Assembly (NCBI GenBank): GCA_003252385.1
Contig: QKEH01000114.1
Coordinates: forward strand, 14,440 to 78,439
Origin: Bacteroidota bacterium
Lineage (GTDB): Bacteria; Bacteroidota; Bacteroidia; Bacteroidales; UBA10428
Direction: 5' to 3'
Length of the DNA: 64,000 nucleotides
Shown: positions 25,479 through 62,383 of the stretch, in pieces
How positions within the stretch are numbered: the stretch's first letter is position 1
Layout of the letters: every line of letters starts with the position of its first letter
Position numbers and translations under genes: made by a program
Notes under the pieces: generated by a model
Databases searched by the model: none
Seen by the model: only the letters and a program-made list of their open reading frames with translations
What the model was told of the DNA's origin: nothing

Positions 25479-26162
25479 TCAGCCAAGTAGTTTAAAGCCT
25501 TTGCCATGAATATTGATTATTTCGACCGTAGGATCGTCCTTCAGGTATTTGCGTAACTTGGCGATATATACATCCATGCTTCGGGCGTTAAAGTAGTTGT
25601 CATCCACCCAAATGGTTTTTAGAGCAAAATTCCGTTCCAGTACCGAGTTCTTATTCAAACACAACAACTTGAGCAGTTCGGTTTCCTTGGTGGTTAACTT
25701 CTGGATCCGATCTTTGAGAGTCAGAATCTGTTTTTCGGTATCGAAACGATAGCGCCCTATGGCAAATTCGTTCTGACTGCTCCCTCCAAATTTACCCGTC
25801 CGGCGCAGTATGGCTTCGATACGGTATACCAACTCTTCCATAGAAAAAGGTTTGGTAATATAATCATCGCATCCGGCTTTAAAACCATCCAGAATATCTT
25901 CCTTTTGCGACTTGGCCGTTAAAAAAAGTATAGGAATGTCGGTATTGGTCATCCGAATTTCCTTGGCCAGGGTGTAGCCATCCTTAATGGGCATCATAAT
26001 ATCCAGGATGCACAAATCGTAATGCTGTTTGATAAAAGCCTTATAGGCCAATTCCCCGTTCGGAAATAAATCAGTGCTGTACTTTTTTGCAATCAGGTAC
26101 TCCCTCAGGAGGCTTCCCAGATTCTCGTCGTCTTCGGCCAACAATACTTTTAATTCGTTCAT
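25479..26162 (-). CDS. rprY: OmpR-family response regulator RprY-like
   Basis: LLAEDDENLG, LDIMMP, DDYITKPF, LTTKE, DDNYFNARSMDVYI and NIHGKGFKL. Confidence 0.88.
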   Translation of the reverse strand: MNELKVLLAEDDENLGSLLREYLIAKKYSTDLFPNGELAYKAFIKQHYDLCILDIMMPIKDGYTLAKEIRMTNTDIPILFLTAKSQKEDILDGFKAGCDDYITKPFSMEELVYRIEAILRRTGKFGGSSQNEFAIGRYRFDTEKQILTLKDRIQKLTTKETELLKLLCLNKNSVLERNFALKTIWVDDNYFNARSMDVYIAKLRKYLKDDPTVEIINIHGKGFKLLG

Positions 26163-27661
26163 AGCTGTTTTATTAATGGCAATTTAATGAAGAAAGAGGT
26201 TCCTTCTCCCAATTCCGATTCCAGGGTTATATGCCCTTTATGCTCTTCCACAACCTTCTTCACATAGCTCAATCCCAGTCCAAAACCTTTCACGTTATGG
26301 ATATTACCGGTGGATACCCTGAAGAACTTATCGAAAATACGCCGTTGGTTTGCCCGGCTGATTCCTATTCCATTGTCGCGAACGATGATCAGCATATCAC
26401 TTTGAACGTTACGGGTCTCAATATAGATCTCCGGAGCTACAGTGGTGTATTTAACGGCATTGTCGAGCAGGTTGGAAAGAATGTTGGTTATGTGTACCGG
26501 GTCGCCCTCAATTTGATCGTTATCGGCGTGCAAGGACGGAATGAGCATGCCTTTGCGTGAGTCGACCTGCAGGGTAAAATTGGCAATGACCGATTCAATA
26601 ATCTCATGAACCGAAAGAATTTCAAAGGTCAGCTTCATATCGCCCTGATCGAACTTGGCCATCTGAAGTACCCGTTCAACCTGATAGCCTAACCGGGCAC
26701 TCTCATCGGAAATAATACCGGAAATACGGCTGTAATTTTTCTGCTCGGGCGAAATACTTTTATCGTTGAGCATTTGGGAGGCTAACGAGATGGTGGATAT
26801 CGGGGTTTTCAGTTCGTGGGTCATGTTGTTCACAAAGTCGCTCTTCATTTCCGACAAGCGCTTCTGACGAATAATTACGTAGAGTGTAAAAGCAAATGTA
26901 ACCAGCAGAAAAAGTGTCAGAACGGATGAAGAAACTACGATAAAACCCATGGAACTGATGATCATACCCCGCATATTAGGGAAATACACGGTGAGGTAAC
27001 TGGGTTCATCAAAGAAGTCGTCGGGAAACAGTTCGATCTGATAGTACTTCTGATGGTCTTCTTTACGAAAATTTTTCGATTTAAAAATCACCTTCTCGTT
27101 CCAGTTGGTAACCGCAAATTCGCATTCCACTTCCAAACCGTGTTCAGCAAGTGCCATTTGTAAAAAGCGATCCACCAGGTCGGGAGTAACGCGTTTTTCG
27201 ATACTGCTTGAAAAATTAAACATTTTAGAAACCACGCGATCAATAAATTCCCGCCGGTTCAATATTCGTTTTAGCATGGACACATTCTTCGATGGATGTT
27301 GCCCGAAGGGATGTCCGATACGCGAACCAAAGAAGATGTTGGTTTGAAGTTCGTATGCGGCATCGGAAGAATAAAGCAGCGTATCCCGCTGAAATTTTGT
27401 GAGGCTGTCCGCAGCTAATTTAGCCCTCAGATATTGCGTACTATCCCACGAAGCGCCGTTCATTTCATCAAAAATATAACTCATGGTTTCATTGCGCTGC
27501 ATATTAAAGACGGCATCGGTTAAAGCTCTGCGGGCAAACTGATCGAAATGCCGTTCGCTCACCTGGTAGGCATTGCGCATCCAGAAGAACTGCAACATAA
27601 TGAGCCCTAACAGGGCAATACTCATGAATACGGTAACTAGGATGATTAACCTCTTGCTCAT
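26159..27661 (-). CDS. rprX: Membrane sensor histidine kinase RprX-like
   Basis: Two TMs; NNMTHELKTP H-box, NLLDNAVKY, DNGIG and HNVKGFGLGL. Start at ATG 27661 (MSKRLII); 4-bp overlap with the regulator. Confidence 0.85.
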   Translation of the reverse strand: MSKRLIILVTVFMSIALLGLIMLQFFWMRNAYQVSERHFDQFARRALTDAVFNMQRNETMSYIFDEMNGASWDSTQYLRAKLAADSLTKFQRDTLLYSSDAAYELQTNIFFGSRIGHPFGQHPSKNVSMLKRILNRREFIDRVVSKMFNFSSSIEKRVTPDLVDRFLQMALAEHGLEVECEFAVTNWNEKVIFKSKNFRKEDHQKYYQIELFPDDFFDEPSYLTVYFPNMRGMIISSMGFIVVSSSVLTLFLLVTFAFTLYVIIRQKRLSEMKSDFVNNMTHELKTPISTISLASQMLNDKSISPEQKNYSRISGIISDESARLGYQVERVLQMAKFDQGDMKLTFEILSVHEIIESVIANFTLQVDSRKGMLIPSLHADNDQIEGDPVHITNILSNLLDNAVKYTTVAPEIYIETRNVQSDMLIIVRDNGIGISRANQRRIFDKFFRVSTGNIHNVKGFGLGLSYVKKVVEEHKGHITLESELGEGTSFFIKLPLIKQL

Positions 27662-27702
27662 GGAAACAAAGATACCTATTGGAACCTTTTGATCTGTAAA
27701 CC

Positions 27703-27738
27703 TTAACAATCTTTAACAAAGCTTGAAAAAACTTAACA
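27703..27738. promoter_or_regulatory. Phased TTAACA direct repeats (candidate OmpR-type operator)
   Basis: TTAACA at 27703, 27713 and 27733 with degenerate TTGAAA at 27723, a 10-bp period, lying between divergent -7 elements at 27667-27674 (minus) and 27750-27757 (plus). Confidence 0.55.
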
Positions 27739-27762
27739 GATGAATGCACTACATTTGTTTCA

Positions 27763-27912
27763 TACAAAACAAGCAAGGTTCAGAGACATAAAAAAATAGG
27801 AAAATTTCTTTTTCATGGTGATTAGTTAGTAAAGTTAGATTACTGATTCTTTTCATAGTTAAAAATGGGTTAGGGTTTGTGAAGGAGGTCGAAAGGCCTC
27901 TTTCTTTTTTTT
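27763..27912 (+). ncRNA. Candidate trans-acting sRNA (~150 nt) divergent from rprX
   Basis: TACATTTG -7 element at 27750-27757, a plus-strand intrinsic terminator at 27881-27912, and minus-strand genes on both sides. The 5' end is approximate. Confidence 0.6.
27881..27912 (+). terminator. Intrinsic terminator of the candidate sRNA
   Basis: GAAGGAGGTC-GAAA-GGCCTCTTTC followed by TTTTTTTT. Confidence 0.8.
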
Positions 27913-28065
27913 ATAAAAACCCGAGCAACGACGGGTAGCTGCTCATTGAATTGACCGTGGCAAGCCATTCTGCCAAAACGAAGTTACACTCCATCTAACA
28001 TACAGACACAATGAGAGACACCCGTTGCAAAGGTTTATCGAAAAATGGATTCACCCCCATTCAGG

Positions 28066-30102
28066 CTAAAAGGAATTTACCAGCCTCATGTCAGGCTGGG
28101 GAACTTTGGACAAACTCACACGGATCGCCTCAAAAAGCTTCTCCTGAGTTAGGGGTTTGGTCACATACGCCGAACAACCGGCCTTCCGGCACTTTTGTTC
28201 ATCGCCATCCAGGGCATTTGCAGTTTGGGCAATAATCGGCAAATGGGGCCACTGTGCAGAAATATAACGGGATGCCTGATAGCCATCCAGCATCGGCATT
28301 TTAATGTCCATCAACACCAAATCTATCTCGTCATGGCTTTCCACCCGCTCAATGGCCTCAACTCCATTGCACGCCCGGATAAGTTGTACCCCGGTTGGCT
28401 TTAATACCTCACTCAGATAGATATAGTTGCACTGATCATCTTCAGCAATGAGCAGTGTATATCCTCGTAGGTCGGGTGTTACTGCGGATGACAGGGACGC
28501 TCCTCTCGATTCGCTGCATTGCGGCTCCGGCAAGGGGTGCAAAGGCAACACAACATTAAAACAAGTCCCCTCACCGGGAGCCGATTCCACCCGAATGGTT
28601 CCATGCAACAATTCTACAATACTTTTGCTAATAGCCAATCCTAAACCGGCACCTGACCAATATCCCGGAAGATTGTTCTCAATCTGAAAATGGCTTTCGA
28701 AAATGGCGTCCTTGAACTCAGCAGGCATACCAATACCCGAATCACGTACCGTAAAAATAACTTTTGCATCATCCAATACTTTATATCCGTATTGAATGGT
28801 GCCCCGCTCTGTGAACTTTGCCGAATTGGTTAACAGATTGAGGATAACCTGCTTCAACCGGTCTGCGTCGGTATACAATTGCAGAGTACGGAGGGAAGTG
28901 TCCACATCCACTATCAGATCTACATCCTGCATGTGGTTGTATTTTCGTAACGTTTGTTCAATTACCGCTTTAAGATCCAATAATAGACTATAGGGATTGC
29001 AAACCCGGTATTTAACTTTCAACTTTTTACTCTCGAGCTTGGAGAAATCAATAATATCGTCAATAATATGAAGTAAATCGGCGCTGCTATTTCGAATGAG
29101 GTGGAGAAAATGATTTCGATCGTTTGTAGAGAAATTCCTCTCCAGCAACAAATCCGTAAACCCAAGTATGGCATTCATGGGGGTACGAATCTCATGCGAC
29201 ATATTCGCTAAAAAGGAAGTTTTTTGTCGATCCAGGTTTTCGGCTCTTTCTTTGGCTGTTCTCAGCCGTGCCTGTACTGTATGATGTTCTGTCCAGTCTA
29301 GCACCGTAGCCAGAATACCTTCCTCCTCCAAGGTCGCTAACTCGTACCTTTGGAGGGTGGTGCGGTACTTTTTTTCTTCGGTCTTCTGCTTTAACGCGAT
29401 CGTGAAACCAAGTTCTTTAGATGCGGAATGAAAGAAACCTTTAGCCCTCATTGAAATGTGATCTATAAAAGATCCCTGATCTTCTGCTGCCCCGACCTGA
29501 CTGAACGATTCGATCAAACTCATCGCTGCTGGGTTAGCATAGAGCAATTGCCCTTGTTGGGTAAAAATAAAGACAGGTAGAAGCAAGCCGGCAAACGAAT
29601 CAAATTCCAAGGAAGCGGATTTGGGACAAATCGCCTCAGGTGGATGGAGGATCATTGCCTGAAACTGAATGGCCAATTCCAGATTTTCGAATTGACTATC
29701 AATAAAGGCACACACCGCATCGAATGTCGTTGAATATTGCAGGTGCAGCCTGGTAAATCGCAATACCTCTTTTTTCAGAAGTTTCAACCTGTACAAATAA
29801 CCGAACAGGTTGCGCTGATTCTGCTTGAACCGATCGCTATTCTGCAGAGCGAAAGAATGATACGGATTTTTTATTCCAAATTCAAGGGTACTTTCGGAAA
29901 CCACAAAGCTTTGGGAACGAAGCTCTTCGGCCAGGATGTTTACGATTTGAAGAACATCATCGTCGGGCAACTCCTGTATTGAAGGCCTTTCGCTGTTTTG
30001 CAATCTTTCGTCGAACCGGCAATCATTCAATTGCCGTGCAAGATTCACACTGCCAGCTGCCAGTGTACTGGCAAATTTCTCCACGCAGTCACTAATTTTC
30101 AT
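28066..30102 (-). CDS. Cytoplasmic hybrid sensor kinase (PAS-like, HisKA, HATPase, REC)
   Basis: FLANMSHEIRTPMN, NLLTNSAKFT, GAGLGLAI and a receiver domain (AEDD, LMDIKMP, TKP); no obvious TM. Start uncertain (ATG 30102 or TTG 30144). Confidence 0.85.
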   Translation of the reverse strand: MKISDCVEKFASTLAAGSVNLARQLNDCRFDERLQNSERPSIQELPDDDVLQIVNILAEELRSQSFVVSESTLEFGIKNPYHSFALQNSDRFKQNQRNLFGYLYRLKLLKKEVLRFTRLHLQYSTTFDAVCAFIDSQFENLELAIQFQAMILHPPEAICPKSASLEFDSFAGLLLPVFIFTQQGQLLYANPAAMSLIESFSQVGAAEDQGSFIDHISMRAKGFFHSASKELGFTIALKQKTEEKKYRTTLQRYELATLEEEGILATVLDWTEHHTVQARLRTAKERAENLDRQKTSFLANMSHEIRTPMNAILGFTDLLLERNFSTNDRNHFLHLIRNSSADLLHIIDDIIDFSKLESKKLKVKYRVCNPYSLLLDLKAVIEQTLRKYNHMQDVDLIVDVDTSLRTLQLYTDADRLKQVILNLLTNSAKFTERGTIQYGYKVLDDAKVIFTVRDSGIGMPAEFKDAIFESHFQIENNLPGYWSGAGLGLAISKSIVELLHGTIRVESAPGEGTCFNVVLPLHPLPEPQCSESRGASLSSAVTPDLRGYTLLIAEDDQCNYIYLSEVLKPTGVQLIRACNGVEAIERVESHDEIDLVLMDIKMPMLDGYQASRYISAQWPHLPIIAQTANALDGDEQKCRKAGCSAYVTKPLTQEKLFEAIRVSLSKVPQPDMRLVNSF

Positions 30103-30205
30103 CAGATGTAAGTTAGTTGTCCATCCTTCTTTTAGGCTGATCAAAATTAGTGGAACAAACGCCTGACACCGGATTAATTAAAATGACATATTGTATCGGA
30201 ACCCT

Positions 30206-60456: not shown

Positions 60457-62181
60457 TCATCTTTCCGACTCACCGGACTGGATCGACAATGAAAACCATC
60501 GGGTCACGTTCAGAAAGCGGTCGTACAGCCGCAGTTCAAAGGGCTCTGCTATCGGCATTTTTTGAGTAACGGGTTCCGAAGCAGCTGCACCATTGATTCG
60601 AATGCATGTATCGGAAGTGTGCACCTCGGCATACAACCAGTCTTCCTGAGAACAAATGGTTAACTCTTGGCCGCGAGCCTCCCATTTTATTTCTGCCTGG
60701 GAACCCTCAAAATCGGTGTACTGACTCAAATTACCCGGCGAGACTTCTTTAAAGCGTTTTTTTACCCGATCAACCGGAGTGCCTTTCACCTGGATGAAAG
60801 CCGGATGAATACACCCCATTCCCTGCAACGCCAGCAATTGTAAATGGCCAACCAGCAGAGGGTCGTTACCGGTAATCAGAGCATGTATGGCATCCACAGC
60901 CAGAGCATCACTTCCGGCCAAAATCAGCCGCATGTTCATTTGCACCTGAGGCAGGAGGTACGAGTTCCCCATACCAGCACCCGGAAACGGGCCATATTGC
61001 GCTCCCTGAATCCCATCGGTAATTACATAATCAGCAGGCCGGCAAAGGTAATAATCGTGAATCCACTGATCCAGCGGTTTTACGCTCCCTTTGAAGTCCC
61101 AATGCGGAATCATCTGCCAGCGCCCCGATTGGTCGGAAGCCACAACCTTAGGGCCATTGCCATACATGCGAACCGGTGTGGCACCTATCCCCAGATTTTT
61201 AACTGCCCCGGTTATGCCGGTCAAGAAATGGGTTTTCAACACCGGCAGGCTAATCAGCACCTGTGCCTTGTAATAGATATTGTTCAGATAGTACCGCGGA
61301 TGCAAAATGTACTGACCTTCAGGCAGGGCAACCAGAATTTGATCGGTAGCAGCCGAATCGTACCAGGCACCTGCAAATTCATCGAGAAGAATTACGGAAT
61401 CCAGGCCCGTTATTCGGCCATATCCCAAACGATTGAAATTCTCGCGTGTATTATCCAAACCGGAAGCTTCCAGGAGAACCAGCATTCCGCTTTTATTGTG
61501 TTCGCGTACTAAATCCACCACCGACTGGATCACCCGATAATCGGTGGCCACGCCATTGGCTTCGGGAGGAAAATACCGCTCACTTCCGGACACCCCATCG
61601 CGCGCACCAATCATATTGGGCTTAAGCACCACCGTATCACCTTCGTGTATCAAGGTATCAAAACCGCCTGACAGGGTCACTGCCTGGCGAATAAGATTTG
61701 TTATCTCTTCCTGTCCAATCCAACAGGCAGAATCCTTCTCTGACTGAACCACGGCCACACAAGCCTTGTATCCATTACCCTGATTCGGCTCGTTCCGAAG
61801 TAAATCAGCTGCCTGCCGACGTTGTTCCCCTGTCTGCGAACGGGCTACCCATTCCTTAATGGGAGAACCGAAGACCATCATCGTAATTACTCCCAACCCA
61901 CAAATGCCATACACGGTATAGTGTCCTCTGCGATGAACAGACAGGTTTTGGGTTACCTTCCTGAACCATCCGCGGAATAATCCTGCTCCGCAAATCCAAA
62001 GCACAAAAGCGGAAGCCAGTGGAAAACTTGCCCGCATGCAAGGATATGCAGCCCGCTGCGGTTTGGGCAGTACCCTGATGAGAAACCAAAGTAAAGCCGC
62101 AGCCCCTATCAGTGCTGCATAGTATCGGGTTGTTGTAAATCTCCGGTATGGAAGGGTGAGAAATTGAAGAAAAGTTTTCAT
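60457..62181 (-). CDS. Membrane-anchored DUF362 domain protein
   Basis: GDTVVLKPN and ISLPVLKTH..GITGAVKN motifs; N-terminal TMs. Start probably ATG 62181. Confidence 0.8.
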   Translation of the reverse strand: MKTFLQFLTLPYRRFTTTRYYAALIGAAALLWFLIRVLPKPQRAAYPCMRASFPLASAFVLWICGAGLFRGWFRKVTQNLSVHRRGHYTVYGICGLGVITMMVFGSPIKEWVARSQTGEQRRQAADLLRNEPNQGNGYKACVAVVQSEKDSACWIGQEEITNLIRQAVTLSGGFDTLIHEGDTVVLKPNMIGARDGVSGSERYFPPEANGVATDYRVIQSVVDLVREHNKSGMLVLLEASGLDNTRENFNRLGYGRITGLDSVILLDEFAGAWYDSAATDQILVALPEGQYILHPRYYLNNIYYKAQVLISLPVLKTHFLTGITGAVKNLGIGATPVRMYGNGPKVVASDQSGRWQMIPHWDFKGSVKPLDQWIHDYYLCRPADYVITDGIQGAQYGPFPGAGMGNSYLLPQVQMNMRLILAGSDALAVDAIHALITGNDPLLVGHLQLLALQGMGCIHPAFIQVKGTPVDRVKKRFKEVSPGNLSQYTDFEGSQAEIKWEARGQELTICSQEDWLYAEVHTSDTCIRINGAAASEPVTQKMPIAEPFELRLYDRFLNVTRWFSLSIQSGESER

Positions 62182-62383
62182 AGTAAACAGTGAAGCTAAT
62201 TTGGCCTGCAAGGTAGCCACTGTCCCCACTCAGGTCGTCCGGAAACCGGTTTTCGAACCAAATACCTGACAAAAATTAAGGGCGACCGGCGAAATCCGTT
62301 ACCGAAAACTATCATCCATACTATGAAAGTCCACACCAAGGTTTAACGGCTCCCCCGCCTATCGATCTCCCAACAGATTATGG

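Follow-up and report, generated by a model that had tools for sequence, protein, structure and literature searches.

A probable FopS-like small RNA gene divergent from an rprXY-like operon in the Bacteroidales

Introduction

In the enterobacteria, MicF and OmrA/OmrB represent the concept of an OmpR-family regulator that drives small regulatory RNAs (sRNAs), which in turn block translation of envelope-protein mRNAs. These RNAs depend on Hfq, and, to our knowledge, their genes are not divergent from their sensor gene. An sRNA can also lie head to head with a gene of the signaling system that controls it, as ArcZ does with arcB in Escherichia coli and Qrr1 with luxO in Vibrio; ArcZ is made as a longer primary transcript whose 3′ end is both conserved and active. 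In the Bacteroidota, RprXY is a widespread two-component system whose signal and output are poorly understood. Here we describe a stretch of 64,000 nucleotides from a Bacteroidota bacterium (Bacteroidales, UBA10428; assembly GCA_003252385.1, contig QKEH01000114.1, positions 14,440–78,439 of the forward strand), which we call the window and whose own numbering is used throughout. In it, a genuine sRNA gene very probably lies in the spacer that precedes an rprXY-like operon, and it is predicted to be read away from the rprX-like kinase gene.

The closest described RNAs, those of the FopS and GibS type, come from Bacteroides, and the taxa of that study are without classical RNA chaperones (PMC11697453, Ruttiger et al. 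2025). FopS RNAs are 65–70 nt long and have an unpaired 5′ seed that acts next to a susC-type start codon and blocks initiation; they are antagonized by the protein RbpB. The family has 14 copies in Bacteroides thetaiotaomicron and 12 in two species named there, and it is reported to be conserved within the Bacteroidaceae. GibS of B. thetaiotaomicron shares with FopS an R1-type seed against the start region, is a longer RNA with more than one seed, is expressed from promoter motif PM2, and responds to glycans containing N-acetylglucosamine (GlcNAc); in the available text of the same paper, no classical two-component link is described for it.

Our literature search for rprX together with sRNAs found no paper linking the two, and no sRNA with a tie to a classical two-component system is mentioned in the available text of a 2026 review. 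The locus had been singled out in a prediction made from the letters of the window (the original prediction), which proposed an sRNA with tandem anti-start-codon seeds, under RprXY control and analogous to MicF and OmrA/OmrB.

Conservation, synteny, and structure of the element

The predicted RNA and its parts are as follows.

27763–27912, plus strand: predicted primary transcript of about 150 nt, delimited by promoter and terminator, its 5′ end deduced from the −7 box
27843–27880, plus strand: conserved core (“seed 2”), CUGAUUCUUUUCAUAGUUAAAAAUGGGUUAGGGUUUGU, with 27 invariant columns in 21 sequences
27881–27912, plus strand: Rho-independent terminator of the sRNA, hairpin and T-run
27806–27842, plus strand: module 1 (“seed 1”), UUUCUUUUUCAUGGUGAUUAGUUAG..., of anti-start-codon form in this species only

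What is conserved is an element at 27843–27912 (plus strand) in which a near-invariant 38-nt stretch, CUGAUUCUUUUCAU...GGGUUAGGGUU, is followed by a hairpin and a T-run. In an alignment of loci from the genus, the near-invariant core, CTGATTCTTTTCATAGGTAAAAATGGGTTAGGGTTAA, again precedes a hairpin of variable sequence and a T-run; upstream of the core lies a variable region and, before it, a conserved block, TTTAACAAnCTTTAACAA...TTG...CTTAAC...TAnnTTTG. When 76 genomes of the same family were searched by BLAST with the spacer, 19 of the 24 other genomes of the genus gave matches, the strongest block being 27829–27914. With a sequence pattern and a covariance model, the element was found in 23 of the 25 genus genomes (source genome included), and in the two negative genomes (completeness 66% and 81%), a contig end interrupts rprX. 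When one genome was scanned for each prokaryote species, 23 stretches had the core pattern, 21 of them from Bacteroidales metagenome-assembled genomes (MAGs) and having both core and terminator. Among metagenome contigs, 11 matched the core; these are multi-kilobase contigs, nine of them bona fide, and none is transcript-like. Several candidate loci were set aside as non-members: the stretch at L065, from a Cytophagales MAG, is where a 282-aa gene begins on the opposite strand, L056/L221 lacks a T-run on the core strand, and L223 is unrelated.

At every locus with enough assembled flank, the core is divergent from and upstream of an rprX-like kinase gene. Across these loci, the regulator is 74–85% identical and the kinase only 45–58%, and the core is nearly invariant. 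The sRNA is single-copy in its genome: the pattern finds one, and model R2, a covariance model built from the 21 core-plus-terminator sequences, scores it at 79.5 bits, with the next match at 24.1. We regard the linkage of the gene to rprXY as old and tight and the gene itself as very probably real.

The terminator hairpin covaries. In the 21 sequences, 98.9% of stem cells are paired, eight of the nine pairs change on both sides, and none of 500 shuffles matches this, although the covariance-model alignment is fitted to structure, so that pair counts lean toward it. When the 3′ partners are slid by 1–3 columns, pairing of the stem falls to 54–75%. A raw alignment made with MAFFT and analyzed with RNAalifold had misaligned the hairpins and yielded only a weak helix in the core; it was replaced by the covariance-model alignment. 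The predicted structure of the core is only a weak, non-covarying helix of seven pairs, and in the predicted fold of the whole transcript, the seeds are mostly unpaired, the terminator excepted.

These comparisons support the plus-strand, ORF-less (ORF, open reading frame) transcription unit of the original prediction, running from the TACATTTG promoter to the terminator. Its individual elements were likewise found in place: the promoter box, the GAAA-loop terminator on the plus strand (a 10-pair stem at 27881–27904 and a T-run to 27912), two TTTTCAT segments 40 nt apart (27810–16 and 27850–56), and GTTAG at 27825, 27834, and 27869. The plus strand holds no ORF of at least 20 aa within 27749–27912. 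TTTTCAT alone is at chance level in the window (22 matches versus 21.4 expected), and thus the case for the element rests on conservation across genomes and not on motif counts. A composite of TTAAC-N5-TTAAC, a gap of 30–34 nt, and TAnnTTTG occurs once, versus 0.00 expected from 100 shuffles.

The claim of tandem anti-start-codon seeds, conserved with the terminator beside rprX, held for one seed of the two. The seed 2 core and the terminator are conserved; seed 1 is not, and its CAU occurs only in this species, the genus relatives reading TTTTTCGTCTAATAG at the equivalent position, with CGU in place of CAU. Seed 1 lies at the usual distance from the −7 box and is similar to the one seed carried by rprX-linked sRNAs of other families (locus L141, for example, reads TTTCATGGTATTAGTTA). 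As a speculation, seed 1 may be the older module and the core a later addition.

On the minus strand at 27763–27816, the antisense of module 1, MKKKFSYFFMSLNLACFV, encodes an 18-aa ORF that looks like a lipobox-bearing lipoprotein signal peptide; the genome yielded no paralogous gene start sharing extended identity with it. In one genus relative, at L034:1250–1296 (minus strand) and a few hundred bases away from its sRNA locus, there is an Rfam match to Acido-Lenti-1 RNA (RF01687), at 38.4 bits just above the gathering score of 37.

A control region shared with rprX

The proposed link between the sRNA and the rprXY-like operon is supported by a deeply conserved control region that the two share and that contains a repeat of the response-regulator type.

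27750–27757, plus strand: −7 box of the predicted sRNA promoter, TACATTTG, of the Bacteroidota TAnnTTTG type
27703–27717: direct repeat TTAACAATCTTTAAC, TTAACA-N4-TTAAC, with a 10-bp period, candidate site of an OmpR-family regulator
27732–27738: third copy of the repeat, CTTAACA
27667–27674, minus strand: −7 box of the predicted rprX promoter, reading TATCTTTG on that strand, 5 nt before the ATG

In the window, TACATTTG stands exactly 32 nt after the direct repeat, and the same distance separates repeat and TAnnTTTG in 25 of 28 genus rows, six of these rows being duplicates of a species obtained from two sources. Of the three exceptions, two arose because the regular expression took a later pseudo-repeat. 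The repeat lies about 41–55 nt from the rprX start and 46–60 nt from the predicted sRNA start. From the −7 box to the core, the distance is 88 nt here and 41–181 nt across the genus rows; in three rows, representing two species, it is only 41 nt, which ties the TAnnTTTG promoter to the core.

The same architecture recurs outside the family. With one genome taken per family, the kinase N terminus was found in 103 of 151 genomes of the order (source genome included), and 24 other-family loci with a true kinase N terminus and 150 nt of upstream sequence formed the promoter comparison set. TTAAC-N5-TTAAC is present in 15 of these 24 rprX-like loci, mostly 39–45 nt from the ATG, compared with 1 of 1034 control windows. 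Ten of the 15 repeat-bearing loci also have a divergent TAnnTTTG, which is 31–33 nt from the repeat in eight, and in 13 of the 24, a −7 box (CAAAnnTA) lies within 20 nt of the rprX ATG. By these sequence comparisons, the predicted sRNA promoter is one half of a rigid, old divergent pair around a single repeat of 10-bp period. Because only 5 nt separate the −7 box of rprX from the ATG, the rprX mRNA is predicted to have no leader or almost none.

Regulators of the OmpR/PhoB family usually bind direct repeats whose period is 10 bp. The obvious candidate regulator at this repeat would be the RprY-like protein, and because the sRNA and rprX promoters flank the one repeat, we infer that it controls both. 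The RprY of Porphyromonas gingivalis has been reported to bind its own promoter (PMC5706477), and no RprY binding motif is given in the available text of PMC3646045, PMC6032018, or PMC5706477.

Window positions 27698–27717, which include the repeat, and 27858–27877, within the core, are 75% complementary over 20 nt, and the TTAAC words of the DNA site mirror the GUUA(A/G) words of the RNA.

Flanking genes

The surroundings of the element comprise the following features.

27662–28065: spacer between two minus-strand genes
26159–27661, minus strand: rprX-like sensor histidine kinase, 500 aa (Pfam HisKA and HATPase_c)
25479–26162, minus strand: rprY-like response regulator of the OmpR family, 227 aa (Pfam Response_reg and Trans_reg_C)
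28066–30144, minus strand: hybrid histidine kinase/response regulator, 692 aa (by Pfam), the far-side neighbor of the sRNA
27922–27945, minus strand: terminator-like hairpin of the convergent hybrid kinase gene, eight pairs and then GGTTTTTATA

Both genes that flank the spacer lie on the minus strand, as had been predicted; the start codon of the kinase gene is at 27661 and not at 27662. The rprX-like gene heads the operon and overlaps the rprY-like gene by 4 nt on the same strand, and a kinase–regulator pair in the order of rprXY recurs in relatives. Against NCBIfam NF051850 (RprY), the regulator scores 364.5 bits, with a cut-off of 370, and its next-best family, the Bacteroidota PhoB, reaches 164.7; no model named for RprX is among the best 25 of the 86 NCBIfam families matching the kinase. 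Relatives of the hybrid kinase, at 40–50% identity, stand on the same side of the sRNA in many related loci. The terminators of the hybrid kinase gene and of the predicted sRNA are convergent and stand back to back.

Seeds and candidate targets

Within the core, UUCUUUUCAU is complementary to AUG-AAA-AGA-A, with which the coding sequences of signal-peptide proteins typically begin. The genome has 37 occurrences of ATGAAAAGAA, the perfect complement of the seed, and 13 of them are at predicted start codons, gene calls in the target search being crude ORF calls (3142 ORFs, 5821 candidate starts). The original prediction had suggested looking among targets for an enrichment of signal peptides, and the starts with a perfect seed complement show one: 11 of the 13 start-site proteins have a hydrophobic N terminus, compared with 33% of all predicted proteins, a preference due in part to MKR being a common start of signal peptides. 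The starts include those of PorV (an outer-membrane β-barrel), DUF362, SprB-repeat, and Ig-like proteins. The 10-nt match at 62175–62184, which had been judged too short to be specific, is present. Starts of rprX, rprY, and the hybrid kinase gene have ordinary pairing energies with the sRNA. A blastn-short search of the genome with module 1 and the core found no extended antisense copy; the best matches, with E-values at chance level, were 16 nt inside a coding region and 17 of 18 nt at the start of a signal-peptide gene. The genome encodes one RRM_1 protein (C33:2211–2423), which makes an RbpB-like partner possible.

At the porV loci of the genus (L193–L213), a TATATTTG/TATCTTTG box followed by GCG(A/G)AC stands about 20–30 nt before the start codon, a position that suggests short and conserved porV 5′ untranslated regions.

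Relation to FopS and other described sRNAs

Among Rfam families, the only meaningful lead is RF04319 (FopS), which matches 27846–27913 at 24.1 bits against a gathering score of 56; no GibS-type match was returned for the spacer. RF04319 is also the only family that repeatedly matches these elements, at 24.1 bits here and 28–44 bits in relatives: the genus relatives reach at most 31.8 bits, and rprX-linked elements of other families reach 40.8 and 43.5. FopS copies of at least 56 bits (56–87) are found in 22 of the 151 order genomes, and in the 17 genomes having both such a copy and a located rprX, no such copy lies beside rprX.

The resemblance to FopS extends to the overall build. The element has an unpaired U-rich stretch with CAU, then a G/U-rich UUA(A/G)GGUU word and a Rho-independent terminator; that is, an unpaired anti-start-codon seed, UUCUUUUCAU...GGGUUAGGGUU, is followed by a covarying hairpin and T-run. 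The predicted promoter is of the TAnnTTTG type, and this genome, too, has a gene for an RRM protein. Pairing at the start codons of outer-membrane transporter mRNAs is a feature of FopS that would apply here by analogy. The short form of FopS, with its seed at the 5′ end, is not what we find, however, since the only conserved TAnnTTTG lies 88 nt before the core; a proximal TAGGTTTC precedes the core only in closer relatives, and the window reads TAGATTAC there. FopS is a multicopy family, whereas the element here is single-copy and fixed beside rprXY; its promoter and seed are 41–181 nt apart, whereas the FopS seed is at the 5′ end; and SusC-type start regions are not enriched among the predicted targets. 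We therefore consider the element to be FopS-like in design and partly in sequence but not a member of FopS, because it scores below threshold, is single-copy, has a 5′ extension, and is fixed to one locus.

GibS offers a parallel for the predicted two-module transcript of this species, both being longer RNAs with more than one seed of the anti-start-region kind; the two differ in that GibS has the PM2 promoter motif, the response to GlcNAc-containing glycans, and no described link to a two-component system. MicF and OmrA/OmrB, which the original prediction took as the closest analogue, have turned out to be more distant than the FopS/GibS type: they share the concept, but no sequence or structural relation to the element. 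With ArcZ and Qrr1, the likeness is in the head-to-head placement of an sRNA and a gene from a two-component system or phosphorelay, and, for ArcZ, in an active 3′ end such as we propose here; sequences, phyla, and chaperones are unrelated, and in our system, both regulation and processing are only proposed. The gene is very probably real and of the FopS kind in design, in a single-copy, rprX-linked form.

Proposed mechanism and alternatives

On balance, we think it probable that the element encodes a trans-acting sRNA that is transcribed away from rprX, pairs at start codons, and is controlled by the RprY-like regulator. Transcription would start a few bases after the TAnnTTTG box at 27750–57 and end at the hairpin and T-run of 27881–27912. 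The functional part would be the 3′ 70 nt, with the almost invariant, largely unpaired 38-nt core and the terminator in a FopS-like build. By analogy with FopS, its most likely action would be to pair across the start codons of mRNAs for envelope and secreted proteins and thus to block initiation, and an RRM-type RNA-binding protein may modulate it, as RbpB does FopS. The RprY-like regulator would control both divergent promoters, making the sRNA a post-transcriptional arm of the two-component system.

Several observations weigh against this proposal. That the RNA is made, which strand it comes from, and where it begins are predictions from sequence. The regulator scores slightly below the NCBI RprY cut-off (364.5 versus 370 bits), and TTAACA-N4-TTAAC is not enriched genome-wide (five matches versus four for the reversed control), the neighbors of its other copies being unrelated housekeeping genes, so that no regulon backs the assignment to RprY. 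Searches for targets were also largely negative, weakly so given the crude gene calls. The longest core helices at the 5821 starts are no better than in dinucleotide shuffles (the maximum of 18 is found in 92 of 200). The best duplex, an 18-bp helix at a kinase start (C152:9116), is absent from 10 orthologues, and at the PorV start, which ranked fifth with a perfect 11-nt match, the complementarity is not maintained across 21 orthologues. Starts of TonB-dependent receptors, mapped for 25 of 28 genes, show no enrichment (p = 0.13), and 18-mer complements with at most two mismatches number 20 non-self occurrences in the 25 genus genomes, versus 14 for the reversed control. Finally, in a sister genus (g8; loci L028–L041 and L165), the syntenic rprX-divergent element keeps AGGUUUAGGGUUUAA and the terminator, and hence GGGUUAGGGUU, without the UUCUUUUCAU stretch that contains CAU. 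The G/U-rich word is thus the most deeply conserved part of the element, and the loss of CAU suggests that the anti-start-codon part may not be essential; function should not be equated with that part alone.

Three other accounts of the locus were considered. The RNA could be real but act mainly as a protein ligand, or sponge, for an RbpB-like RRM protein, with the invariant 38 nt serving as its binding surface. The invariant stretch (38–43 nt) is indeed as long as the 41-nt motif reported in RbpB ligands (PMC11697453), the genome has its one RRM_1 gene, the searches found no conserved target, and the element of the sister genus retains GGGUUAGGGUU without the CAU part. We nevertheless think this unlikely as the main role, as the perfect seed complement falls on the starts of signal-peptide genes; moreover, FopS both binds RbpB and pairs with susC start regions (PMC11697453), and thus the two roles are not exclusive.

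Alternatively, the conserved stretch might be read on the minus strand, where it would form a leader resembling a start region, or a mini-ORF (MKRIRN...), located between rprX and the hybrid kinase gene and affecting rprXY expression in cis. That strand does read as a canonical A-rich start region with a conserved ATG AAA AGA ATC, and all 21 sequences keep a minus-strand ORF of at least six codons beginning MKRI. As a conserved coding sequence, however, this short ORF was rejected: its length ranges from 6 to 60 aa, nothing past MKRI(R/S) is shared, and the 23 nt before its ATG are as conserved as the ORF itself. The genus alignment shows no conserved minus-strand promoter motif upstream of the stretch, the hybrid kinase gene has its own terminator-like hairpin upstream, and a separate −7 box serves rprX, 5 nt ahead of its ATG. 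Covariation of the hairpin, a T-run that follows it on the plus strand only, the separate, abutting minus-strand terminator, and the lack of conservation of the minus-strand ORF together argue that the RNA is read on the plus strand, and we consider a cis-acting minus-strand leader very unlikely. Slightly less probable still is that the stretch acts at the DNA level and has no RNA role of its own, being instead a set of additional sites for the regulator or a bidirectional terminator. The GTTAA/GTTAG words of the core are the reverse of the TTAAC repeat, and the two 20-nt arms noted above are complementary. But the GTTA words are spaced by 6 nt in relatives and not by 10, the invariance spans all 38 nt, including the U-rich CAU part, the hairpin covaries, and the conserved promoter, directed into the element, stands 41–181 nt away from it, a variability that fits a transcript and not an operator.

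Significance

If the RNA proposed here is made and depends on RprY, then RprXY gains a post-transcriptional arm. Probably the most useful product of the analysis is the candidate regulator box with its promoter pair: the candidate binding site, TTAACA-N4-TTAAC, 32 nt before TAnnTTTG, is directly testable in cultured Bacteroides, Prevotella, and Tannerella. The FopS-type design of anti-start-codon seed and terminator would, if our reading is true, extend beyond the Bacteroidaceae to uncultured environmental Bacteroidales, and the single-copy, one-locus form would point to where the multicopy FopS family may have come from.

A broader version of this idea is that the rprX-divergent promoter and TTAACA-N4-TTAAC constitute an ancient, order-wide output port of RprY. 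In many Bacteroidales, this port would drive an anti-start-codon sRNA through which cells under envelope or oxidative stress stop making signal-peptide proteins, a Bacteroidota counterpart of the sigma-E/OmpR sRNA arms of enterobacteria, and the multicopy FopS/GibS RNAs of gut Bacteroides would descend from a single ancestor, linked to a two-component system, that escaped to other promoters. We hold this tentatively and, taken as a whole, rate it as doubtful.

rprX-divergent elements in other families

Short, terminated, FopS-like elements divergent from rprX-like kinase genes were found at loci L077, L089/L157, L141, L142, L147, and L162, and one at L080 is divergent from a response-regulator gene with 54% identity to RprY. 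At L144, L145, and L164, the same repeat and divergent TAnnTTTG box drive protein genes and not an sRNA, which argues that the divergent promoter is older than its cargo. By reading of the translations, these genes are a lepA-like GTPase (L144), a signal-peptide protein (L145), and a ribF-like gene (L164).

Model R2 has matches at E ≤ 0.01 in 66 of the 151 order genomes (source included), some with multiple or tandem copies. The consensus of these matches is TTTTTTCATAG(G/A)TT..TAGGTTAG followed by a terminator, and RF04319 co-locates with them at 28–41 bits. One locus from another Bacteroidales family, L081 (G152:C18:26504–27176), holds four FopS-like sRNA genes in tandem, about 200 nt apart, which score 40–42 bits with R2 and 28–34 bits with RF04319; a fifth copy lies elsewhere in that genome.

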